A stretch of DNA of 32,000 bases from Candidatus Micrarchaeota archaeon (GTDB lineage Archaea; B1Sed10-29; JAJSAI01), in the NCBI GenBank assembly GCA_964625085.1, contig CAZVAJ010000004.1, forward strand, positions 28,614 through 60,613. The letters are read 5' to 3'. The first letter of the stretch is position 1. Every line of letters starts with the position of its first letter. Positions 1-27,008 of this stretch are shown here, in pieces. The notes under the pieces are model-generated. The model had not been told where the DNA came from and ran no database searches. It saw only the letters and a program-made list of their open reading frames with translations. The translations under genes and the position numbers were made by a program.

Positions 1-315
1 CTGTGCGACCTGGAGAACCTTAGCCAGCAGGAATCAGCGGAAAAAATGAACATATCACAGCCCACGTTCAACCGGATCCTAAACTCGGCAAAAAACAAGA
101 TCGCTGACGCGATCGTAAACGGCAAAGCCATAAGAATAGAAGGAGGTGTCTATGAAATGGCGTTTGGAAAAGGGCGTGGAAGAGGACCGTACGCAGCAGG
201 CCCTGGAGGAGTATGCAAGTGCCCCAACTGTGGATACGAACAACCACATGCCCCAGGCCAACCTTGCACACAACTGATCTGCCCAAAATGCAAAACAAGG
301 ATGATTAGAGCATGA
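1..315 (+). CDS. DUF134/UPF0251-family putative DNA-binding protein with C-terminal zinc ribbon (5' end outside window)
   Basis: The frame is open from nt 1. [49 protein letters not shown] resembles the sigma-70 region-4-like HTH of DUF134. The C-terminus carries CKCPNCG...CPKCK. The stop overlaps the next ATG (ATGA at 312-315). Confidence 0.75.
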
Positions 316-3366: not shown

Positions 3367-3543
3367 ATGACCGACGTTATGGGCACGTGCGATATATGTG
3401 GTAAACCCAGCAGAACTTTATATACCTGCTGGAAATGTGGCAGGAAAGTGTGCCCAGAGCATCATGATCCTGAAACAGGACTGTGCATAGTATGTGCATC
3501 ACAGCTTAAAAAAGGGGGGCCTGCACCTTGGACAAAGAAATAA
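3367..3543 (+). CDS. Small (58 aa) cysteine-rich zinc-finger protein
   Basis: This ORF is not in the supplied track. It reads MTDVMGTCDICGKPSRTLYTCWKCGRKVCPEHHDPETGLCIVCASQLKKGGPAPWTKK. The spacing CxxC-x8-CxxC-x4-C-x2-HH-x7-CxxC suggests a cross-brace two-zinc module. The gene starts 13 nt from the divergent S2P start. Confidence 0.5.
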   Translation: MTDVMGTCDICGKPSRTLYTCWKCGRKVCPEHHDPETGLCIVCASQLKKGGPAPWTKK

Positions 3544-4901: not shown

Positions 4902-5387
4902 TCAATTTCCTCCATGGCGCTTCTTATATTCATCCTGAATAAATTTTGGTGCATATGATAAATATTTCTTTTGTAAAATTGGGGGTAATGTGAAAAAATC
5001 ACCTTCAACGATTCCTATACAATTTTTACTTCCACACTTACATTTCATTTTCCAGCCTTCATCCAATGCACTTATACGATAGTCCGTGGTTATCTCTTCA
5101 CCTTTCTTAATGGATTTTAGAGCATAAGCAGATTTTCCTTTAAAAATTGTATTTGGATCACAAGAATGATTAATGAAACATTCAGGAGATCGTTGCACTT
5201 CAAAGACTCCTTTTTCAATTTGATTGATGTGTTCTTGTTCTTCTGGTGGAAGTTTAGGAAAATCTTTTGATTTTATAATTTTACCTTTTCTGCTTCTAAA
5301 AATAAATTCTCCTTTCTTGAAATTTTTTAATGCAAAAACTCCTTTGCCCTTTTCTTTTGTTTCTTTAACTATTACGTCTTTGATCAT
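4902..5387 (-). CDS. SET-domain protein lysine methyltransferase
   Basis: Motifs present: GKGVFA, FINHSCDPN (the NHSCxPN motif), EEITTDY, and a post-SET-like CKCGSKNC. The gene is markedly AT-rich and is flanked by 237-bp and 209-bp spacers. Confidence 0.88.
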   Translation of the reverse strand: MIKDVIVKETKEKGKGVFALKNFKKGEFIFRSRKGKIIKSKDFPKLPPEEQEHINQIEKGVFEVQRSPECFINHSCDPNTIFKGKSAYALKSIKKGEEITTDYRISALDEGWKMKCKCGSKNCIGIVEGDFFTLPPILQKKYLSYAPKFIQDEYKKRHGGN

Positions 5388-8536: not shown

Positions 8537-9109
8537 ATGATGATGGTGTACTCTCCTGCTGAGGACTCGTGGCTGCTTGCAGAAAATATTCCTGAGCCAT
8601 TTGGATCAAAAGAATTCCTTGACATAGGATGCGGGACAGGAATCATAGGAATCAATGCTGCTAGGAAAGGATGGCATGTCACGTGCACAGACATTGATCC
8701 CCTCGCGGTAAAAACCGCGCGAAGGAACTTTGAGAAAGAAGACCTTTCTGGAGAATTTTTGGTAGGAGATCTTTTTGAGCCTGTTAAAGGAAGAAAATTT
8801 GACGTGATAGCATTCAACACACCCTACCTTCCAACAGGGCAAGAAGACCAGGATGCTGAAAACAGAATAGTGTGGGACGGTGGAAAAGAGGGAATAAACC
8901 ATGCAGTATCAACGATTAAACAAGCAGGCGGGTTCTTGTCAGAGGAGGGAGAAATCATCATACTTGTCTCAAGCCTGGGTAACATTAAGAAACTGTTCAG
9001 GATAGCCCGCGAGCAAGGATACAATGTTAGCATTATAGCGTGCAAGAAACTTTTCTTTGAAGAACTTCTTGTACTATCTTTCAAAAAATCGTCAGCAGAA
9101 AACGCGTGA
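8537..9109 (+). CDS. HemK/Mtq2-like N5-glutamine (release factor) methyltransferase
   Basis: YSPAEDSWLL, the SAM motif I LDIGCGTGIIG, and the catalytic tetrapeptide position reading NTPY (the canonical form is NPPY). About 190 aa, as in archaeal Mtq2. Confidence 0.75.
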   Translation: MMMVYSPAEDSWLLAENIPEPFGSKEFLDIGCGTGIIGINAARKGWHVTCTDIDPLAVKTARRNFEKEDLSGEFLVGDLFEPVKGRKFDVIAFNTPYLPTGQEDQDAENRIVWDGGKEGINHAVSTIKQAGGFLSEEGEIIILVSSLGNIKKLFRIAREQGYNVSIIACKKLFFEELLVLSFKKSSAENA

Positions 9110-9146
9110 GAAACTGTTATATAATCGTTCCAACAGAAAAGGTCTG

Positions 9147-11213
9147 ATGACTGAAGCGCCTGTTTCCAAGGAAGCTGTTTTCGAAGATTTCTTTAACACA
9201 CCCAAGTACAAGAAAGCACTTAATGAGCTGGCGCTAAAGTACCCTAAAAAAATGAGTCTGGAAGTCGACTACAAAGACCTTGATGAGTTCAGCATAGAAC
9301 TTGCAGACGAACTTCTCGAAAGACCTCATGAAGTAATAAAAGCAGCTGAAAAAGCAGTAGAAAACATGGGGATCCTGTCGGTACAAGGAGAACTTCTAAA
9401 ACCAAACGTAAGATTTCATTCTCTTCCTGAATCCAACCAGGTGCTGATAAGGGACCTGAACTCAAGCTGGATAAACAAAATGCTCAGTCTTGAAGGGGTA
9501 ATAACCAAGATAACCACAGTGAAACCGAAAATAAGAACTGCTGTTTTCCAATGCAACAGCTGCGAAAGAGTCTACAGAATCGAGCAGGATGAACAAAATG
9601 ACGTGCTTTCACAACCTTTCCAGTGCGCGTGCGGAAAAAAATCGTTTACACTGCTCGTGGAAGACTCAGACTTTGTTGACGTGCAGAGAGCAGAAATACA
9701 AGAGCCTCTAGAGTACATGAGAGGCGGAGAACAGGCCAAGAGCATAACAGTAAGACTATCATCTGACCTGACCAACAAGTTTGTTGCAGGAGACAGAATA
9801 GAAATTTCAGGAACCCTAAAACTCGACACAGGAAAGAAAAAAAGTTCGATATACAACATCTTTATCGACGCTAATCACATAAAAAAACTAGAACAAGAAT
9901 TTGAAGAAATAGAGCTCAGTGAAGAAGACGAAAACTGGATAAAAGAAACAAGCAAGGATCCAAAAATATACGAAAAGATCGTTGCATCAATAGCCCCGAG
10001 TATTTACGGGCACAAGGAAATTAAAGAAGCAATAGCCCTACAACTGTTCAGCGGAACACACGGAAAGATAAAACCAGACAAAATGAAGATAAGATCTGAC
10101 ATGCACATACTGCTCATAGGAGATCCTGGAACTGCCAAAACACAACTTCTAAGATACGTTAAAGACCTTGCGCCAAAAGGGATTTATGTTTCGGGAAAAT
10201 CATCATCTGGAGCAGGCCTGACCGCAACAGCTGAAAAAGACGATTTTGCGGAAGGAGGATGGACTCTGAAGGCAGGAGCACTCGTGCTGGCTGCAGGCGG
10301 CATCGCGCTGATTGATGAGTTTGACAAGATGGGAGACGAAGACAGGAGCAGCATGCACGAAGCCATGGAAAGCCAAACGATCTCTGTCGCAAAAGCAGGG
10401 ATAGTCACCACGTTCAGGGCGAACGCGAGCATACTCGCAGCAGCAAACCCCAAATACGGCAGGTATGATCCGTACGATCCTCCTGCAGAACAGTTCAACA
10501 TTCCTCCAACCATCCTCTCAAGGTTTGACTTAATCTTCCCAATTCGGGACGTGCTTAATCCTCAAAGGGACGGAGAAATGGCTGACCATATCCTGCTCAC
10601 GCACAAGCTTGCTGCAGAACACGCTAAAAACCTGACAGAAGAAGAGAAACAGAGCGTTCTCCCCGTAATAGACCCTGAAAAAATGAGAAAGTACATAGCG
10701 TACGCTAGAAAAAACTGCAATCCCATCCTATCAGAAGAAGCTATAGAAAAAATCAAAAGGTTTTACATTGACATGAGAAAACTGGGAGAAGCTCAAAAGT
10801 CTGTGCCCATAACCGCCAGGTACCTAGAAGCCATAGTCAGGCTTGCTGAAGCAAGCGCCAAAGTCAGACTCAGTGACACAGTAGAGATACAGGACGCTGA
10901 AAGAGCCATAAGACTACTGCAGTTCTCGCTAAGAGAAATTGGAGTAGATCCTGAAACAGGCCAGTTTGACATTGATATCATTGCAACAGGCACTCCAAAA
11001 TCAAAAGCAGACAAGATAAAGACAGTGCGCAGGATCATAAAGGAGATCTCCGCAGAAAAAGGAGAAGCATCGCATGCAGAAGTGCTGGAAGAAGCAAAGG
11101 CAAAGGGAATCAACCCTGAAGACCTGGAAGAACTGCTTAACACTCTTAAAAGAGAAGGAGATATATATTCTCCAAAGCATGGTCTGTACAAGCCAGCTGA
11201 AAAAAGAGAGTGA
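9147..11213 (+). CDS. mcm: MCM replicative helicase
   Basis: Zn motif CNSC...CACG, Walker A GDPGTAKTQ, Walker B LIDEFDKM, sensor 1 AAANP, arginine finger SRFDL, and a C-terminal winged-helix-like tail. ATG 9147 lies after the upstream stop. Confidence 0.97.
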   Translation: MTEAPVSKEAVFEDFFNTPKYKKALNELALKYPKKMSLEVDYKDLDEFSIELADELLERPHEVIKAAEKAVENMGILSVQGELLKPNVRFHSLPESNQVLIRDLNSSWINKMLSLEGVITKITTVKPKIRTAVFQCNSCERVYRIEQDEQNDVLSQPFQCACGKKSFTLLVEDSDFVDVQRAEIQEPLEYMRGGEQAKSITVRLSSDLTNKFVAGDRIEISGTLKLDTGKKKSSIYNIFIDANHIKKLEQEFEEIELSEEDENWIKETSKDPKIYEKIVASIAPSIYGHKEIKEAIALQLFSGTHGKIKPDKMKIRSDMHILLIGDPGTAKTQLLRYVKDLAPKGIYVSGKSSSGAGLTATAEKDDFAEGGWTLKAGALVLAAGGIALIDEFDKMGDEDRSSMHEAMESQTISVAKAGIVTTFRANASILAAANPKYGRYDPYDPPAEQFNIPPTILSRFDLIFPIRDVLNPQRDGEMADHILLTHKLAAEHAKNLTEEEKQSVLPVIDPEKMRKYIAYARKNCNPILSEEAIEKIKRFYIDMRKLGEAQKSVPITARYLEAIVRLAEASAKVRLSDTVEIQDAERAIRLLQFSLREIGVDPETGQFDIDIIATGTPKSKADKIKTVRRIIKEISAEKGEASHAEVLEEAKAKGINPEDLEELLNTLKREGDIYSPKHGLYKPAEKRE

Positions 11214-16233: not shown

Positions 16234-16379
16234 TTAAAAGTTTTCTTTTTATCCTCGCTGCCTGCAATTGAATACAACAAGTGTCCACTGACCAGATAAA
16301 ACAAAATCCCTGGTTTTTATTCACCGTTTACAAAACCGTAGAACCTAAAACTTTTATACCCCTCCTCCTTTTTATCATC

Positions 16380-17243
16380 ATGAGTCTCAGGAGCGTCAGA
16401 AAAACCGCTGAAAACATAAAAAAGCTCGAGATCCAAGGCGCTAAAAACATAGCCTTGGCAGCAGTCAGATCCCTAAAAAAGGTAAAAGAAAAAGAGTATG
16501 ATCAGGCTGTTTCTCTGCTCAAGGCAAGCAGGCCTACTGAGCCCATGATGCGGAACATTCTGGACTACATAACACACAAAAAGGATGAAGGCTACTCTTT
16601 AAAAGAAGCCATTTCTTTTGCTGAAAAGCTGGCTGAAGACTCTGGAAAAGAGGTAGTAGAAGTTGGAAAAGAAAAGATATTCAACAACTACAAGATCCTG
16701 ACCCACTGCCACTCTAGCACTGTGATGAACATACTGAAAAAAGCCTGGGCAGAAGGCAAGCGGTTTGAAGTGTACGCGTGCGAAGCCAGGCCAAGATACC
16801 AGGGAAGGATAACCGCAAAAGAACTGGCCAAAACAGGAATTCCGGTAACTTTGATAGTAGATTCTGCTGCAAGGTACTACATGAACTATTTTGACATAGT
16901 GCTTGTCGGAGGAGACGCGTTCACGGCCGAAGGATATCTAATAAACAAAGTGGGTACAGGGACTATTGCTCTTGCAGCACATGAAGCAAAAACAGACTTT
17001 GCCGTAGCAATAGAACTCTTAAAGTATGATCCGGCAACAGGTTCAGGAAAACCTGAACCAATAGAAGAAAGAAATCCTAAAGAGGTCTGGGAAAAGCCTC
17101 CTAAAAACGTAAAGATAAAAAACCCTGCCTTTGATGTTACACCCCCAGAGTACATAGACCTCGTAATAACAAACAAAGGAATCACTAACCCGTACAGCAT
17201 ACAACAAATGGCTAAAGAGCACTATCCGTGGCTGGTGAAATAA
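16380..17243 (+). CDS. Ribose-1,5-bisphosphate isomerase (eIF-2B alpha/beta/delta-like family)
   Basis: ILTHCHSSTV (catalytic Cys region), RPRYQGRITAKELAKTGIPVTLIVDSAA, and VGGDAFTAEGYLINKVGT. The gene is colinear with my recollection of the Thermococcus R15P isomerase and lies beside AMP phosphorylase. ATG 16380 lies 22 nt after a TTTTATA box. Confidence 0.82.
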   Translation: MSLRSVRKTAENIKKLEIQGAKNIALAAVRSLKKVKEKEYDQAVSLLKASRPTEPMMRNILDYITHKKDEGYSLKEAISFAEKLAEDSGKEVVEVGKEKIFNNYKILTHCHSSTVMNILKKAWAEGKRFEVYACEARPRYQGRITAKELAKTGIPVTLIVDSAARYYMNYFDIVLVGGDAFTAEGYLINKVGTGTIALAAHEAKTDFAVAIELLKYDPATGSGKPEPIEERNPKEVWEKPPKNVKIKNPAFDVTPPEYIDLVITNKGITNPYSIQQMAKEHYPWLVK

Positions 17244-17244
17244 A

Positions 17245-17532
17245 ATGGAAACAGAGATAATAGAGACCAAAAACGGGGCCGCGCTCGGCATAAAAATAAA
17301 GCTGAGAACAACACCCTTACTATTAATAAAAGCTGAAAAAGGGTACTTGGCTTGCGGGTACTTTAATCCCAACACCATAGAACTCATAGGAGACAGGGCA
17401 GTAATAATCCCAAAGGTATCCTCATTTTCAGAAATGCTGAACAAAAAGCCTGTGTTTGTAAGCAAGGAAGCAAGAAAATTAGGGGCCAGGCTAAACATGA
17501 CCGGGAGGGAGATTCTTGAAATATTCACATGA
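17245..17532 (+). CDS. DUF1805 (YunC-like) protein
   Basis: 95 aa. The pattern PLLLIKAEKGYLACGYFNPNTIELIGDRAVIIPKVSSFSEML...VSKEARKLG is typical of DUF1805. It starts 2 nt after the isomerase stop. Confidence 0.7.
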   Translation: METEIIETKNGAALGIKIKLRTTPLLLIKAEKGYLACGYFNPNTIELIGDRAVIIPKVSSFSEMLNKKPVFVSKEARKLGARLNMTGREILEIFT

Positions 17533-17545
17533 AGACAGCCTGAAA

Positions 17546-19096
17546 ATGGAGCTTACAGCAAAAAGAATGGACCTTCTCTCCGGTGGAAAAAAGATAATCG
17601 TATTGAACAACAAAGACGCGGAATTCTTTGACCTAAAACCAGTGGACAGGGTTAGAATATGGCATGATCACAAAAGCGTGATAGCAATAATAGACATTTC
17701 AGAAAAGTTTGTGAAAAAAGGAACTGCAGGCTGTTTTGAAGAAGTGTTCAAAAGCCTTGGGCTGAAAGAAAAGGACAAAATAAGGGTAGAGCCCGTGCCA
17801 AAACCAGAAACAGTAAACCTGATAAAAGCAAAAATGCAGGGCAGGACCCTCACAAGCCAGGAGATAGACAAGATAATAAAAGATGTTATGGAAGAAAAGC
17901 TTTCTGACATAGAACTGACCGCTTTCATGACAAGCGTCTACATCAGAGGGTTTAACGACGCGGAAACAGTAAGCCTGACAAAAAGCATAGTTAACTCCGG
18001 CACCACCCTAAAGCTGAACAAGGACATAATCTTAGACAAACACTGCATAGGAGGAGTGCCAGGAAACAGGACAACAATGCTGTTAGTACCAATAATAGCG
18101 GGATACGGCATGACAATCCCTAAAACAAGCAGCAGGGCAATCACAAGCCCTGCTGGAACTGCAGACGTGATGGAAGTACTGGCCCCTGTGTCACTAAAAG
18201 AAGAGGAAATAGAAGAAGTGGTGAAAAAAGCCAACGGGTGCATTACATGGGGCGGGGCAGTGAACCTGGCTGCTGCTGACGACAAGCTGATAAGAGTAAG
18301 AGTACCGCTAGGCCTTGATCCTCCTGGAGTACTCCTAGCATCAATAATGGCCAAGAAAAAAGCAGTTGGCGCAACGCATGTGTTAATAGACATACCCATA
18401 GGCAGGGGCGCGAAAATACCTGATGAAGAAAAAGCAAAAGAACTGGCCAGAGACTTCATGGAAATAGGAAGCCAGCTTGACATGAGCATCCACTGCATAA
18501 TAACACCAGGATATGACCCAGTAGGCTTTGCAGTAGGCCCGGCAATAGAAGCAAGAGAAATACTAAGGATACTAGAAGGAAAAAGAGTAAGCACTGACCT
18601 TAGAGATAAAGCAGTAATAATGAGCGGGAAACTCCTAAAAATGAGCGGCAAAACAAGTCAAGAAGAAGGGGAAAAAGCAGCTGAACATCTCATAAGCTCT
18701 GGGAAAGCGCTTGAGAAACTGAAAGAGATTATTGAACTTCAGGGAGGAGACCCAAAAGTCACATCAGACGATGTGCAGGTGGGAGATAAGCAGGTTACTG
18801 TAAAAGCGCATAAGAAAGGGAGGATACAGTACATTAACACAAGATCCATAACAGCTATAGCAAGAGCTGCTGGAGCTCCAAAATCAAAAGGGGCTGGAGT
18901 GTACATGCATGTTGAGAAAGGAGACAAGCTGAAAAGAGGACAGCCCTTGTTCACCATATACGCTGAAAGCGAACAAAAGATTGACGTGGCTCTTGATGTG
19001 ATGAACAGAATGCCGCCAGTAGAATTTGAAAAAGTAATACTAGAAGAACTGTCAACAGAGGAAGAACTGAAACCGTACATGCTTGAATTCCACTAA
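17546..19096 (+). CDS. deoA: AMP phosphorylase (archaeal thymidine-phosphorylase-family enzyme with N-terminal extension)
   Basis: About 516 aa. It has the N-terminal roughly 85-aa domain specific to AMPpase, then DKHCIGGVPGNRTT, SSRAITSPAGTAD, and a C-terminal pyrimidine-nucleoside-phosphorylase domain. ATG 17546 follows the DUF1805 stop. Confidence 0.9.
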   Translation: MELTAKRMDLLSGGKKIIVLNNKDAEFFDLKPVDRVRIWHDHKSVIAIIDISEKFVKKGTAGCFEEVFKSLGLKEKDKIRVEPVPKPETVNLIKAKMQGRTLTSQEIDKIIKDVMEEKLSDIELTAFMTSVYIRGFNDAETVSLTKSIVNSGTTLKLNKDIILDKHCIGGVPGNRTTMLLVPIIAGYGMTIPKTSSRAITSPAGTADVMEVLAPVSLKEEEIEEVVKKANGCITWGGAVNLAAADDKLIRVRVPLGLDPPGVLLASIMAKKKAVGATHVLIDIPIGRGAKIPDEEKAKELARDFMEIGSQLDMSIHCIITPGYDPVGFAVGPAIEAREILRILEGKRVSTDLRDKAVIMSGKLLKMSGKTSQEEGEKAAEHLISSGKALEKLKEIIELQGGDPKVTSDDVQVGDKQVTVKAHKKGRIQYINTRSITAIARAAGAPKSKGAGVYMHVEKGDKLKRGQPLFTIYAESEQKIDVALDVMNRMPPVEFEKVILEELSTEEELKPYMLEFH

Positions 19097-20894: not shown

Positions 20895-21014
20895 TGCTCG
20901 GCGGCCACAGCGGGCGGGAAACACCCGGTCTCTTTCCGAACCCGGAAGTTAAGCCGTCCAGCGATCTTGTGTGTACTGCCCTCTTGGGCGGGAAAGCAAG
21001 GACGCTGCCGAGCA
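20895..21014 (+). rRNA. 5S ribosomal RNA (archaeal type)
   Basis: The terminal helix pairs GCUCGGCGG with CUGCCGAGC. The conserved CCGAACCCGGAAGUUAAGC and GUACUGCC elements are present. About 120 nt. The ends are approximate to +/-2 nt. Confidence 0.95.
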
Positions 21015-24194: not shown

Positions 24195-24836
24195 CTACAC
24201 CTCAAAAATTTTATCCGCCATGCTCATCAAAAAATTTTTGATTCTTCCGCTCCCTGCAACAGGAACTGACAAAAGTATAACTATCGCTCCTTTCTTCCGG
24301 GTGTTTGACAAAAGCCGGTGTAAAAACTTCATTGTATCTTGTTCTGAGTTGTACACTGGGAGAACTGCGACAGAGTCAAACAACGCAATCACTCCTTTAT
24401 CCAGACTTCCGGAGATCTTCATCATAAGCTCATTCAAACTGGCAGGAGACTTTACCATGACAACATTCCTTCCAGGAGATTCCTTTGAACTGCTAAGCCC
24501 GGAAGCAGCATCAATAACCTTGAAGTTCTCCAGTATTTGGGGGTCTATAGAGGATGAGGGCCTTGAAAGGGAAACCAAAATTTTCTTAGCCTTTTTTTCT
24601 AGGAGGGTTGAAAGGACACTATTAAACGCAGAATTGTACTTGCCTATATCATTAATCACTACGAGTGCCACAAATCCTGGACGCGCATCTTGCAGCAGTC
24701 CGCTTGCAGAAAACTTTTCAACAGAAGATCTGAGGAAGTTCCCAACAACTTCTTCCTGACTCTGCATGCTCATTGTATCTGTAGGCACAAGCAAAAAAAG
24801 TGCAGAAAGTATAAAAAAGGTTCTGTTCTCTTTCAT
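24195..24836 (-). CDS. Membrane-anchored or secreted P-loop-less RecA/KaiC-like (DUF835-like) domain protein
   Basis: The start at ATG 24836 forms an ATGA overlap with the upstream gene. The N-terminal hydrophobic segment is FFILSALFLLVP. The body follows the KaiC-like strand/helix pattern (ILVSLSRP, VIDAAS, VMVKSPASLNEL, IALFDSVAVL, KFLHRL, AIVILLSVP) but has no GxxxxGK[ST]. Confidence 0.55.
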   Translation of the reverse strand: MKENRTFFILSALFLLVPTDTMSMQSQEEVVGNFLRSSVEKFSASGLLQDARPGFVALVVINDIGKYNSAFNSVLSTLLEKKAKKILVSLSRPSSSIDPQILENFKVIDAASGLSSSKESPGRNVVMVKSPASLNELMMKISGSLDKGVIALFDSVAVLPVYNSEQDTMKFLHRLLSNTRKKGAIVILLSVPVAGSGRIKNFLMSMADKIFEV

Positions 24837-25075
24837 TTCTTGCTTTTTTTGCCGGGCTTTATGAAAACGTCTGCAACTATCTTGGCAACCAGCACCAAAA
24901 TAAGAAGGTACATGGGATACCACCACAGGTCAGTTTTAGGCGGAATTGTGTTTGTTATTGCCAGCGTGTACCACTGTCCTGCAACAAACATGAACAGGGT
25001 GTACCCCACAAAAAACAGCAGCATGTCTTTTATTGCAACCCACACGTCCTTTACTTCTGGTCCGATTATTGCCAT
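24833..25075 (-). CDS. Small membrane protein (80 aa, 2 TM, basic C-terminus)
   Basis: It is the first gene of the minus-strand cluster. A TATA-like ATTATAAT lies about 30 nt upstream, and the stop overlaps the next start. Confidence 0.55.
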   Translation of the reverse strand: MAIIGPEVKDVWVAIKDMLLFFVGYTLFMFVAGQWYTLAITNTIPPKTDLWWYPMYLLILVLVAKIVADVFIKPGKKSKK

Positions 25076-25140: not shown

Positions 25141-25734
25141 TTAGTCCTTTTCCAGCACCCAGAACACCTTTTCTTCACGCGTTCCAGGCATAAAAACATG
25201 CGTGCTCTTCTTAAACCCTGCTTTTTTGAACGCGCGTTCCACTATCCTGGTTTCTTCTTTTGTTTTAGGATAGAACTGGACCACTGCAACCCCCTTCTTT
25301 TTTAGTACTCTGTAAAATTCTGACGCGGTTTTCTGATAGTTTGCTATAATTTCCTCTCTTGATTTTCCGGTTATCCACTGTAAGGCAGAAATGCATACTA
25401 TGGCGCTGAAGCTTTCGTCAGGAAAAGGAATGCTTCGCATGTCTGCTTTTTTTACTTGCAGTCCTTTTGCTTTTGCTATGTCAAGCATGGGCTGGGAAAC
25501 GTCTATTCCTACGACAGAGTATCCTTTTTCTTTCAGGACTTCTGTAGAGAATCCTGTTCCGCAACCAACATCAAGTACACGGCCTTTTGATATTCTTCTG
25601 GACTTCAGCAGCTTTGCCGCGAACGCTGTCATCTCCTGCTGTACCTGCTTCATTCTCCTGCTTTTCTCATAGTTTTCAGCGGTCTCTTTGGAGAAGTATA
25701 CTTCAGGATAGTAATAACGCAGTTCCCAGGGCAT
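25141..25734 (-). CDS. Bud23/WBSCR22-like class I SAM methyltransferase (candidate SSU rRNA m7G methyltransferase)
   Basis: YPEVYFSKETAENYEKSRRMKQVQQEMTAFAAKLL, VLDVGCGTGFS, VVGIDVSQPML, IPFPDESFSAIVCISALQWI and VVQFYPKTKEE...KAGF are colinear with my recollection of yeast Bud23 and human WBSCR22. It lacks their basic C-terminal extension. Confidence 0.75.
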   Translation of the reverse strand: MPWELRYYYPEVYFSKETAENYEKSRRMKQVQQEMTAFAAKLLKSRRISKGRVLDVGCGTGFSTEVLKEKGYSVVGIDVSQPMLDIAKAKGLQVKKADMRSIPFPDESFSAIVCISALQWITGKSREEIIANYQKTASEFYRVLKKKGVAVVQFYPKTKEETRIVERAFKKAGFKKSTHVFMPGTREEKVFWVLEKD

Positions 25735-25741
25735 TATCCTT

Positions 25742-26107
25742 TCATTCCTTCAGTTGCTGGAGTTCCTGCTTAAGCTCGTCTAAAGCCCTCTGCAGCTCAT
25801 TAATCCTTCTGCTTATGCTTTCAACACTGCTGTCCACGTTCTTTTCCTGCACTACCGCCACTGTTGAAGCAGCAGAGGGAACCATCTGCTGTTCTTCTTC
25901 AATTGGTTTGGCGTCCCAAACGCTCTTAGGCGGCTTCATGCTCGGAGGTATCACAACAAGTTTTCTTTCTTTCGCTGCTCCGGCAGGGGGCTTCCAGAAA
26001 AGTTCCTCTCTTTCCCTCTGTTTTTGTTTGTTTTTCTCCTGAACTTCTTTTATTCTCTGCTGCGCTTCATGCTCATACTTTGAGATTATGTCAGACATGA
26101 GGGACAT
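25742..26107 (-). CDS. Hypothetical coiled-coil protein
   Basis: 121 aa. Heptad-like charged helices sit at both ends (QQRIKEVQEKNKQKQREREE; INELQRALDELKQELQQLKE), with a Pro-rich middle. It lies between the zinc-ribbon gene and the methyltransferase. Confidence 0.55.
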   Translation of the reverse strand: MSLMSDIISKYEHEAQQRIKEVQEKNKQKQREREELFWKPPAGAAKERKLVVIPPSMKPPKSVWDAKPIEEEQQMVPSAASTVAVVQEKNVDSSVESISRRINELQRALDELKQELQQLKE

Positions 26108-26130
26108 GGTTTAGGAAAGGAAAAAATAGT

Positions 26131-26490
26131 TTATAAATCTTTCGCGGAAGACGCTATTTTTTGGTTAAGAGTATACATGTCCCCTGATTTTTCTATAACC
26201 TTCATTTTTTCAAGCTCTGGGAGGTCCTTTTCAGATTCTTTCCCGGACAAGAAAGTAAGCTCAGAGTAAGTTCTGTCTTTCACCGCCAGCATCTTCAGTG
26301 CTTTTCTGGCTGCAGGCGAAAGTTTTTTCCACAGGCCAGGAAAAGAAAGAACCTTAAGCTCCCCGTAGCTGTCTAGAGAAATGAACGACGGAGTGCTGCA
26401 CTGTCTGCATATCACCCAGTCAAAAAACGTTTCGTCAGAAAGGAATGCCTTCAGGGTCGTGCTACATTCAGGACACTTCGCAATTATCAT
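26131..26490 (-). CDS. Zinc-ribbon plus winged-helix-like small protein
   Basis: The N-terminal CPEC-x18-CRQC forms a zinc ribbon. The C-terminal LKMLAVKDRTYSELTFLSGK...LEKMKVIEKSGDMYTL is wHTH-like. Confidence 0.55.
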   Translation of the reverse strand: MIIAKCPECSTTLKAFLSDETFFDWVICRQCSTPSFISLDSYGELKVLSFPGLWKKLSPAARKALKMLAVKDRTYSELTFLSGKESEKDLPELEKMKVIEKSGDMYTLNQKIASSAKDL

Positions 26491-26534
26491 ACATTGAAAA
26501 GGCTTTTATTTTATTTAAACCATAAGGTTAGCTG

Positions 26535-27008
26535 ATGATAACGAACAGAAAGGTCTATGAGTCATGGAAGCCGGTTCAATACGCTAAGTATGAAAGCATG
26601 TTTCAAAAGATAAGAGATAGAATAAGGAAGGGAAGCTTGTTTGACTATGGAATAGGCCCTGGCTGGCTGGAAATGTTTTTTGACGAGAAAGGGGTCAGGT
26701 TTGACAGGATAGTCGGGTTTGACCCTGAACCGAAAATGACCGAACCAAAACTCGCAAACGTTGAGTACGTGCACTCCGGACCTCTGGAAGAAGAGTTTGA
26801 TAACGTGTTCTGCATTGACACCGCGCACCTGTTAAAAGAACCAGAAGAAGAACTTCCTCATCTTGTCAGAAAGGGAGGACTTCTTGTAGTCAGTGTTCCA
26901 ATGAGGTTCATGAACAAGATGCCTGAATTCAAGAGCATGCGGGTTCTTGAAAAGGGAATAGTAGGAAGCGCGGAGAAAGACTTTTTCTGGGCCTGGGAAA
27001 AGGTTTAA
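26535..27008 (+). CDS. Small Rossmann-fold SAM-methyltransferase-like protein (degenerate motif I)
   Basis: LFDYGIGPGW (motif I-like), IVGFDPEP, VFCIDTAHLL, LVRKGGLLVVSVP. 157 aa. Confidence 0.5.
   Translation: MITNRKVYESWKPVQYAKYESMFQKIRDRIRKGSLFDYGIGPGWLEMFFDEKGVRFDRIVGFDPEPKMTEPKLANVEYVHSGPLEEEFDNVFCIDTAHLLKEPEEELPHLVRKGGLLVVSVPMRFMNKMPEFKSMRVLEKGIVGSAEKDFFWAWEKV

Follow-up and report, generated by a model that had tools for sequence, protein, structure and literature searches.

Does an archaeon of the Micrarchaeota encode a true counterpart of Bud23, the methyltransferase that places m7G in eukaryotic 18S rRNA, and does it do so together with a zinc-binding partner of the Trm112 kind? 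These questions arise from a 32,000-nucleotide stretch of Candidatus Micrarchaeota archaeon DNA (here referred to as the window), in which the original prediction described a three-gene minus-strand operon beginning with a zinc-ribbon protein and ending with a Bud23/WBSCR22-type methyltransferase. All three open reading frames (ORFs) were found on the minus strand: the methyltransferase gene (25141..25734, 197 aa), a gene for a 121-aa product here named protein B (25742..26107), and the gene for the 119-aa zinc-ribbon product, here named protein A (26131..26490), with intergenic gaps of 7 and 23 nt. However, the methyltransferase gene is not clearly the last of its cluster, and the cluster is bigger than proposed, since the conserved neighborhood also includes two further genes. 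The first of them, overlooked in the original prediction, is divergently oriented, starts 44 bp from the operon and encodes a 157-aa minimal class I methyltransferase of an uncharacterized family, here named MT2 (26535..27008, plus strand). The second, on the minus strand (24833..25075), encodes an 80-aa membrane protein whose homologues are conserved downstream neighbors of the Bud23-like gene at L081, L082, L084, and most of the L093-L101 loci; its membership in a functional module is uncertain. The surroundings in the window are archaeal, with genes for an MCM protein with an archaeal winged helix, aIF2beta, aIF1A, and GlyRS.

We compared the 197-aa product with known structures by phmmer against the PDB. 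The five best matches were all Bud23 proteins (yeast, human, and fungal), aligned over residues 9-194 with E-values of 1e-22 to 1e-23 and scores of 81-87 bits, whereas the best generic methyltransferase reached only 58 bits (E = 9e-15). Identity to Bud23 was 29-32% over about 190 residues, and the alignment took in both the helices preceding motif I and the ISALQW segment, so that the proposed colinearity with Bud23 holds. In the family alignment, motif I (L54-D55-x-G57-C58-G59-T60-G61) and D78 at the end of beta2 are invariant. More specifically, eight residues distinguish the family, Q32, S116, Q119, W120, Q153, Y155, P156, and F174, among them the pre-motif-I Q and the residues of the SxxQW loop of motif IV and the QxYP loop of motif VI. 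These residues are conserved in at least 82% of eukaryotic and at least 93% of archaeal-type sequences but in only 0-20% of generic methyltransferases, and the window protein has all eight.

An exhaustive profile search returned about 65 short archaeal-type matches followed by longer proteins, of which eight of the nine tested carry the Pfam WBS_methylT domain. The family is discrete, with a drop from 101 to 67 bits to other methyltransferases in a search of 5.8 billion proteins. As judged by these sequence comparisons, the nearest relatives of the archaeal family are the eukaryotic Bud23 proteins that have a WBS_methylT tail. The archaeal-type members are all about 185-220 aa long, and the window protein stops at residue 197, straight after the last beta-strand, without a match to PF12589, confirming that the basic tail is missing and that the protein consists of the catalytic domain only. 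The WBS_methylT tail also lies outside the crystallized Bud23 catalytic domain (4QTT_B, 208 aa). We considered whether protein B could supply the basic tail in trans; when it was compared with 16 eukaryotic tails by hhalign, the probability was 0.1%, and this idea was rejected.

The AlphaFold2 model of the Bud23-like protein (pLDDT 92.8) showed a Rossmann-type fold with helices at residues 16-45 ahead of motif I. When this model was used in Foldseek, ranks 1-8 were all Bud23/WBSCR22 structures (TM 0.78-0.90, rmsd 1.9-2.5 A, 178-195 columns), while the first match outside Bud23 had a TM of about 0.6. The fold is thus the same as that of yeast Bud23 and human WBSCR22/BUD23, the 18S rRNA m7G1575 and m7G1639 methyltransferases, respectively (4QTT/4QTU, 6G4W), with which the window enzyme also has in common the N-terminal helices before motif I, the motif I glycines, the beta2 aspartate, and the SxxQW and QxYP residues. 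It differs from them in its archaeal host, in the missing tail, in a more charged beta3 edge (Lys95 in the archaeal enzyme, at a position that is 98% hydrophobic in eukaryotes), the edge through which eukaryotic Bud23 pairs with Trm112 as an obligate heterodimer, and in its genomic company, as no canonical Trm112 was detected in the window or in the 140 kb of related loci examined and the gene is instead linked to MT2, with which it is fused in one lineage.

The sequence comparisons, the signature residues, and the fold all identify the enzyme as one of the Bud23/WBSCR22 type, as originally predicted, and not as a generic methyltransferase of the UbiE/SmtA kind; a phylogenetic tree recovers the same grouping with low support. 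Two observations could nevertheless suggest a class I enzyme acting on a small molecule or another substrate and merely resembling Bud23: Pfam and NCBIfam assigned only generic methyltransferase models (Methyltransf_11 at 2e-22, with BioC and UbiE far under their cut-offs), and in a neighbor-joining (NJ) tree the split between Bud23-like sequences, eukaryotic and archaeal together, and generic methyltransferases received a bootstrap of only 53/100. The catalytic domain of Bud23 itself, however, is also Methyltransf_11 in Pfam, and the family-specific residues, the fold ranking, and the best-match ranking all favor Bud23. The same tree argues against a recent acquisition from a eukaryote. The eukaryotic sequences form a monophyletic clade (93/100) with the archaeal ones outside, and the short sequences within it are only truncated eukaryotic gene models and a truncated yeast control; the branching order of the archaeal groups is not settled by the tree. 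Moreover, more than 25 independent contigs carry a Bud23-like gene in an archaeal setting. Recent eukaryote-to-archaeon transfer or contamination was ruled out by this combination of gene context and tree topology, and we regard the whole reading of the enzyme as generic or recently transferred as very improbable and already largely ruled out.

The archaeal family is broad and deeply diverged. Its members come mostly from DPANN archaea, the source names of the relatives being Micrarchaeota, Diapherotrites, and DPANN, with one Asgard-labeled member. A scan of a genome collection with the family alignment was swamped by the generic motif I pattern and gave only L001 as a true member; loci were subsequently obtained by contig look-ups with exact proteins. 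At seven Bud23-like loci (L001 and L087-L092), protein A, protein B, and MT2 are all missing within 4-5 kb, showing that the module is not universal and that the enzyme is evidently able to work without linked partners.

On the basis of family membership and of the conserved active-site loops, the predicted target of the enzyme would be the N7 of a universally conserved guanine of small subunit (SSU) rRNA, corresponding to yeast G1575 (G1338 in E. coli), beside the P-site tRNA; the window itself contains no 16S rRNA. In passages of two reviews from 2017-2018 (PMC6144793, PMC5372719), archaea are described as being without Bud23, and no m7G is reported at that rRNA position in the archaea analyzed so far; these passages name no DPANN archaeon.

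We then asked what protein A could contribute. The AlphaFold2 model (pLDDT 91.9) shows a ribbon of five strands and, after it, a domain resembling a winged helix, bearing out the predicted architecture, with the CPxC...CxxC zinc ribbon at residues 1-49 and the winged helix at residues 50-118. A search with the single sequence returned protein A alone, and the alignment was made from locus-derived homologues instead. Its four cysteines, C6, C9, C28, and C31 (CPEC-x18-CRQC), are invariant among 16 homologues, and family members are 119-139 aa long. The family is small and clade-restricted; among the 13 lineage contexts in which Bud23-like genes were examined, 8 lack it, including L086, where protein B and MT2 are kept.

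The original prediction had compared this zinc ribbon to Trm112, a comparison that did not stand up to profile or structural searches. By hhalign, the probability of a relationship was 8.7% when bacterial Trm112 was used and 11% when archaeal and bacterial Trm112 were combined, with only the generic knuckles aligning. Relaxing the threshold to E<=10 brought up no match of a Trm112 HMM to protein A, although genuine Trm112 controls gave 1e-23 to 1e-25; at the same threshold, the Pfam model Trm112p (PF03966) matched no member of the 16-protein family. Trm112 chains were not among the 50 best Foldseek matches of protein A, and the (Y/F)PIxDGIP strand by which Trm112, a protein of 60-80 aa, docks on methyltransferases was not found in it; nor does it contain DG(I/V)P, the core of the more general form (Y/F)P(I/V)xDG(I/V)P of that strand. 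Protein A does resemble Trm112 (COG2835/PF03966; short archaeal forms 6ZXW_H and 6F5Z_C), the zinc-knuckle activator of Bud23, Mtq2, Trm9, Trm11, and METTL5, in being small, in having a CPxC...CxxC zinc site of similar spacing, and in being encoded beside class I methyltransferases. In contrast to Trm112, it has no N-terminal helix and no docking strand, has an added winged helix, is twice as long as archaeal Trm112, and is confined to a few lineages. Homology of protein A to Trm112 was thus not supported by any available test. The window does encode a relative of another Trm112 client: as predicted, the product of 8537-9109 is Mtq2/HemK2-like by its PDB and Pfam matches, aligning over residues 4-185 at 6e-9 with human N6AMT1 and at 5.5e-7 with the Mtq2 of E. 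cuniculi, matching Pfam MTS at 2e-19, and carrying the NPPY-type catalytic motif N-T-P-Y.

Protein A could still do the work of Trm112, perhaps without being homologous to it: its ribbon beta-sheet would dock on the exposed beta3 edge of the Bud23-like enzyme, and perhaps of MT2, and would stabilize and activate it as a holoenzyme. The linkage of the protein A gene to MT2 and the Bud23-like gene in four lineages would be compatible with such binding. It shares a transcription unit with the Bud23-like gene in two clades and lies head-to-head with a Bud23-like::MT2 fusion in a third, and a canonical Trm112 was not found in the 140 kb examined. In addition, a review attributes more weight in the Trm112 interface to main-chain beta-zipper contacts than to conserved residues. 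The short archaeal Trm112 signature, given as [C/D]PX[C/D]X19-36CX2C in a passage of PMC5372719, is nearly fitted by CPEC-x18-CRQC, in which the x18 spacing is one residue under the published range. Set against these points are the negative searches, the absence of the docking strand, the extra winged-helix domain, the patchy co-occurrence of protein A with Bud23-like genes, and the charged beta3 edge of the archaeal enzymes. Furthermore, at two loci (L106 and L107) protein A and MT2 are kept as a pair with no Bud23-like gene nearby, suggesting that the two may act independently of Bud23. We consider a Trm112-like role of protein A unlikely.

The steadiest neighbor of protein A is MT2 or a gene containing MT2, with which it is arranged head-to-head in all four lineages having protein A. 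In the window, the spacer between them (26491..26534) has a central A/T box, ttttattttatttaaa, some 25-27 nt away from either start codon, and the same arrangement, with a spacer of 43-50 bp and a TTTATTTAAA box, was found at L081 and at nine listed loci of the L082/L084 type. From standard archaeal promoter geometry, we infer that the 44-bp spacer is a bidirectional promoter region common to the operon and to MT2, from which leaderless transcripts would be made. A scan with sigma-70 promoter and terminator models, which are not suited to an archaeon, gave chance-level results.

A further reading would make protein A a small transcription factor (zinc ribbon plus winged helix-turn-helix) governing the promoter that it has in common with MT2, in which case the linkage would be regulatory and not physical. 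A divergent pair over a short spacer is the classic arrangement of a regulator and its target, protein A is monocistronic in L108, and the best structural matches of its C-terminal half are DNA-binding winged helices of the MarR/ArsR type. However, these matches are non-significant (E>=0.05), with a TM of about 0.4-0.47 over 65-78 columns, and winged helices bind RNA and protein too; the Foldseek matches, which included MarR, ArsR, and ScpB winged helices, also contained methyltransferase dimerization domains. The N-terminal ribbon superposes on LysW zinc ribbons (TM to target 0.53-0.62), again non-significantly (E about 0.1). As no solved protein joins a ribbon and a winged helix as protein A does, and all matches are at E>=0.05, no function could be transferred from them. 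The TATA-like box, moreover, fills nearly the whole of the 43-50-bp spacer and leaves no clear operator, and one would not normally expect a reduced genome of the DPANN type to devote a regulator to RNA methyltransferases of a housekeeping kind. A purely regulatory protein A appears to us a minority possibility, although a more plausible one than a counterpart of Trm112. In the mechanism that we favor, protein A would be an accessory of restricted phylogenetic range, serving the two methyltransferases as an adaptor that binds RNA or protein, or else acting as a small regulator on the common promoter.

The other candidate for a partner of the Bud23-like enzyme is MT2. Its motif I (D37-x-G39-x-G41) and residues D95 and H98 are invariant, suggesting that MT2 is probably an active enzyme; matches in the PDB and Pfam were to generic methyltransferases only and gave no functional clue. 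A first MT2 alignment was too diverse for a metagenome scan, and a narrower one worked. The adjacency of MT2 is conserved in the window, at L081, on 11 contigs of the L082/L084 type, and at L086. In L108 (P0140), MT2 is fused to a Bud23-like domain in one continuous ORF, with the protein A gene head-to-head with the fusion. Protein B, with a conserved N-terminal helix and a C-terminal coiled coil, belongs to no known family, its searches against Pfam and the PDB giving only coiled-coil noise; its gene immediately precedes the Bud23-like gene in the window, at L081, at the L082/L084-type loci, and at L086, where its ORF overlaps the methyltransferase start. The E. coli protein RlmKL is a fused dual rRNA methyltransferase responsible for m7G2069 and m2G2445 of 23S rRNA. 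As in RlmKL, two class I domains, one of them of the m7G type, form a single polypeptide in P0140/L108, while in other lineages they are encoded by separate neighboring genes, which by analogy suggests that they may act on one RNA substrate. The Bud23-like and MT2 domains are unrelated to RlmK and RlmL, however, and MT2 is a minimal enzyme of 157 aa. Of all the neighbors, MT2 is the best-supported functional partner of the Bud23-like enzyme.

In summary, we consider it likely that the window encodes a Bud23-family enzyme reduced to its catalytic domain, with a probable m7G target in SSU rRNA, working in a module in which MT2 is the partner and protein A is not Trm112. The module, conserved in a DPANN lineage of the Micrarchaeota kind, would have the genes of the Bud23-like enzyme and of proteins A and B on one strand and that of MT2 on the other, expressed from a single 44-bp bidirectional promoter, and the pair of enzymes, one polypeptide in another lineage, would be akin to fused dual rRNA methyltransferases. 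A more far-reaching scenario, which we find improbable, would make Bud23 an archaeal invention: a DPANN holoenzyme with MT2 and with protein A as an unrelated, Trm112-like stabilizer would place m7G, possibly along with another methyl mark, close to the P site in 16S rRNA. Eukaryotes would then have inherited the enzyme, with Trm112 taking over from the earlier partner and the basic tail as a later addition.

Bud23 is among the few SSU base-modifying enzymes treated as eukaryote-specific, and an archaeal family that is its nearest relative alters this picture. Whether m7G lies beside the P site in these archaea, whether a Bud23-like enzyme can be independent of Trm112, and whether eukaryotes inherited Bud23 from archaea are now testable questions. 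Finally, the conserved pairing with MT2, which in one lineage is a fusion, points to an RNA-modification module of two enzymes that had so far escaped notice.

Three closely packed ORFs lie on the minus strand at 25141-26490, as stated in the original prediction of a three-gene operon: a zinc-ribbon protein, here named A (26131-26490, 119 aa), a coiled-coil protein, here named B (25742-26107, 121 aa), and the Bud23-like methyltransferase (25141-25734, 197 aa), with gaps of 23 nt between A and B and 7 nt between B and the methyltransferase. That prediction had overlooked a divergent gene encoding a methyltransferase-like protein, MT2 (26535-27008, plus strand, 157 aa), which starts on the opposite strand, 44 bp upstream of A. 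Downstream of the methyltransferase, an 80-aa membrane protein (24833-25075, minus strand) and a DUF7504 protein (24195-24926, minus strand) are both kept in the related locus L081. The 243-aa ORF of the latter begins with GTG, and its true start is probably a later Met because the GTG-start version overlaps the 80-aa gene. The window is archaeal DNA, carrying an MCM with an archaeal winged helix, a Pab1020-type RNA ligase, aIF2beta, aIF1A, an archaeal/eukaryotic-type GlyRS and a 5S rRNA. The 5S rRNA gene stands alone at 20897-21013 (plus strand; Rfam, 82.8 bits), and no 16S rRNA, 23S rRNA or tRNA genes were found anywhere within the 32 kb. Named sources of relatives of the methyltransferase were Micrarchaeota, Diapherotrites, "DPANN group" and one Helarchaeota assembly.

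The methyltransferase had been proposed to be of the Bud23/WBSCR22 type and not a generic enzyme, and we are highly confident of its membership in the Bud23 family. Pfam and NCBIfam gave generic class I models and nothing more specific, which is uninformative since the catalytic domain of Bud23 itself is Methyltransf_11. The best 5 PDB sequence matches were all Bud23/WBSCR22 (fungus, yeast and human; E = 1e-22 to 1e-23, residues 9-194), while the best generic enzyme reached E = 9e-15. In a collection of 5.8 billion proteins, members of its family scored at least 101 bits and the next match 67 bits, indicating a discrete family, and several members are labelled "18S rRNA (guanine1575-N7)-methyltransferase" by the JGI pipeline. 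A profile run against 1.84 billion representatives returned 183 matches at E <= 1e-30; the first ~65 were 182-239 aa long and were followed by proteins of 250-420 aa, in which Pfam detected WBS_methylT, the tail specific to Bud23, in 8 of 9 tested. Eight columns (Q32, S116, Q119, W120, Q153, Y155, P156 and F174) are kept in eukaryotic Bud23 and in the short archaeal-type proteins and essentially missing in generic methyltransferases, and the window protein has all eight. These residues sit in the loops of motifs IV and VI, which line the substrate pocket in class I enzymes, a position that would argue for the same chemistry as Bud23. Consistent with this family assignment, the best 8 PDB structural matches of the AlphaFold2 model (pLDDT 92.8) were Bud23/WBSCR22 (TM 0.78-0.90, rmsd 1.9-2.5 A), followed by generic enzymes at TM ~0.6. 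Unlike eukaryotic Bud23, the 197-aa protein has no basic WBS_methylT tail at its C-terminus by Pfam, in agreement with the prediction. The best match of the exhaustive profile search, P0137 (412 aa, not in the window), carries two tandem Bud23-like domains joined by a lysine-rich linker, and resembles an internally duplicated enzyme.

A neighbor-joining tree of 172 domain sequences placed the eukaryotic and archaeal-type proteins together and separated them from 25 generic enzymes, with a bootstrap of 53/100. The method and its simple distance correction are crude, and the deep branches should be read with caution. The eukaryotic Bud23 clade was supported at 93/100, and the short sequences inside it were only truncated gene models and the truncated yeast control. 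Archaeal-type sequences formed four deep groups outside this clade, whose branching order the method did not resolve. A recent eukaryote-to-archaeon transfer is excluded by this tree, and eukaryotic Bud23 may or may not have originated from within archaeal diversity.

A had been proposed as a counterpart of Trm112, the zinc-binding partner of eukaryotic Bud23. Its description as a zinc ribbon with a winged helix holds: none of 16 aligned homologues varies at C6, C9, C28 or C31, and in the AlphaFold2 model (pLDDT 91.9) residues 2-49 form a ribbon of five strands, after which comes a winged-helix-like domain. Its CPEC-x18-CRQC pattern comes close to the short archaeal Trm112 signature, given in a published review as [C/D]PX[C/D]X19-36CX2C (PMC5372719), and for this reason homology to Trm112 was tested carefully, with authentic reference sequences recovered from PDB alignments. 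The A family aligned with Trm112 by hhalign at probabilities of 8.7% (bacterial) and 11% (archaeal and bacterial), through the generic knuckles alone. None of the 16 members matched Pfam Trm112p even at E <= 10, their matches being generic zinc-ribbon models only, and a Trm112 HMM found no match in 140 kb of archaeal DNA including the A genes, with true Trm112 controls at 1e-23 to 1e-25. The Foldseek matches of A were MarR/ArsR/ScpB winged helices and LysW ribbons, none of them significant, and the top 50 included no Trm112. A lacks the DG(I/V)P strand through which Trm112 docks. Thus A is not homologous to Trm112, the analogy failing every available homology test, and a role as a Trm112-like docking partner is very unlikely. 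No canonical Trm112 was found within the window. On the enzyme side, Trm112 docks on Bud23 at the beta3 edge, where archaeal-type proteins differ: position 95 is Lys in the window protein, charged in 46% of archaeal-type proteins and hydrophobic in 98% of eukaryotes, and position 100 is Gly in 95% of eukaryotic sequences and Arg/Thr/Lys in archaea. This gives a weak hint that the interface may not be conserved in archaeal-type enzymes. A further small zinc-ribbon protein of the CPxCG type, in which CKCPNCG...CPKC comes after an HTH-like N-terminal part, is cut by the window start (1-312, plus strand).

Contig look-ups and one metagenome scan showed that a module of A, B, the Bud23-like gene and MT2 is conserved in one DPANN clade. 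All four genes, with MT2 divergent and adjacent, occur in the window, in L081 (methyltransferases 66% identical) and in the clade of L082 and L084, represented by 11 contigs with differing outer flanks. In L086 (48% identical) A is missing, B overlaps the methyltransferase start and MT2 lies 2 kb away. In L108, which lacks B, the Bud23-like and MT2 domains are fused in a single uninterrupted 382-aa ORF (P0140), head-to-head across 69 bp with an A homologue (E = 2.4e-32 against the A-family profile). L106 and L107 have A head-to-head with MT2, no B and no Bud23-like gene within 4.5 kb, while seven loci (L001, L087-L092) have the Bud23-like gene and none of the other three. The constant partner of A is always an MT2-containing gene, and not Bud23 specifically. 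Because of the repeated adjacency and the Rosetta-stone fusion, MT2 is the best-supported associate of the Bud23-like enzyme, and a functional link between them is likely. MT2 matches only generic Pfam and PDB entries, representing an uncharacterised family of minimal class I methyltransferases; it is probably an active enzyme, since motif I (D37-x-G39-x-G41) is intact, beta2 ends in an acidic residue, and D95 and H98, at the place of motif IV, are invariant. In two clades the spacer between A and MT2 measures 43-50 bp and centres on one TTTATTTAAA box ~25-27 nt from either start codon, a geometry that suggests back-to-back promoters and leaderless transcripts. A may serve either as an accessory adaptor or in regulating the promoter; we consider it unlikely to be a transcription factor. 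B had no known match in Pfam or PDB, and the idea that it supplies the missing Bud23 tail in trans was ruled out by hhalign (0.1%). In L106 (4439-4966, minus strand) and L107 (2857-3450, minus strand) the A-like zinc-ribbon/winged-helix proteins are distant and end in a long, basic C-terminal tail; the genes that follow downstream encode a membrane protein of 263 aa and a Glu/Lys-rich coiled-coil protein of 570-580 aa with a CxxC...HxxxxH zinc-finger motif.

Elsewhere in the window, this small archaeal genome encodes a 161-aa SET-domain protein (4902-5387, minus strand; Pfam SET, 2e-14); lysine methyltransferases with this domain occur sporadically among archaea. A ribose-1,5-bisphosphate isomerase-like gene of the IF-2B family (16281-17243, plus strand) adjoins an AMP-phosphorylase-like gene (17516-19096, plus strand; Glycos_transf_3 and PYNP_C), two activities with which archaeal AMP salvage begins, and this pair recurs close to the Bud23-like gene of L090. 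Between the M50 peptidase and RNA ligase genes lies a small ORF rich in cysteine, CDICGKPSRTLYTCWKCGRKVCPEHHDPETGLCIVC (3388-3495, plus strand, within a 65-aa ORF segment), whose pattern resembles that of a cross-brace or HIT-like zinc finger. The gene at 8537-9109 (plus strand) was correctly recognized as Mtq2/HemK2-like, but it adds little because Mtq2 orthologues are general in archaea, according to the Trm112 review (PMC5372719). It shares ~50 nt with the MCM ORF (9057-11213, plus strand) as listed, with a TTG start, and the true MCM start is for this reason probably further downstream.

The Bud23-like enzyme would form m7G on the 16S guanine that corresponds to yeast G1575, which we take to be E. 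coli G1338; we slightly favor such a small-subunit rRNA function. MT2 may act on the same substrate or form a complex with the Bud23-like enzyme, an arrangement that could be likened to RlmKL, a fused E. coli enzyme. A 2017 Trm112 review (PMC5372719) and a 2018 Haloferax Trm112 paper (PMC6144793) both state that no protein significantly similar to Bud23 could be found in archaea and that m7G is not known from the matching 16S position. Full-text searches for Bud23/WBSCR22 in DPANN, Asgard and Micrarchaeota found no report, and later papers mentioning Bud23 and archaea reported no homologue. Since the JGI labels exist, the archaeal family is known to automated annotation and, as far as we could find, absent from the literature. 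In summary, the original observation is confirmed and its interpretation holds in part. The methyltransferase adds a new member to a known enzyme family, from a domain of life in which specialists had called Bud23 absent, and its conserved tie to a second small methyltransferase is unexpected.
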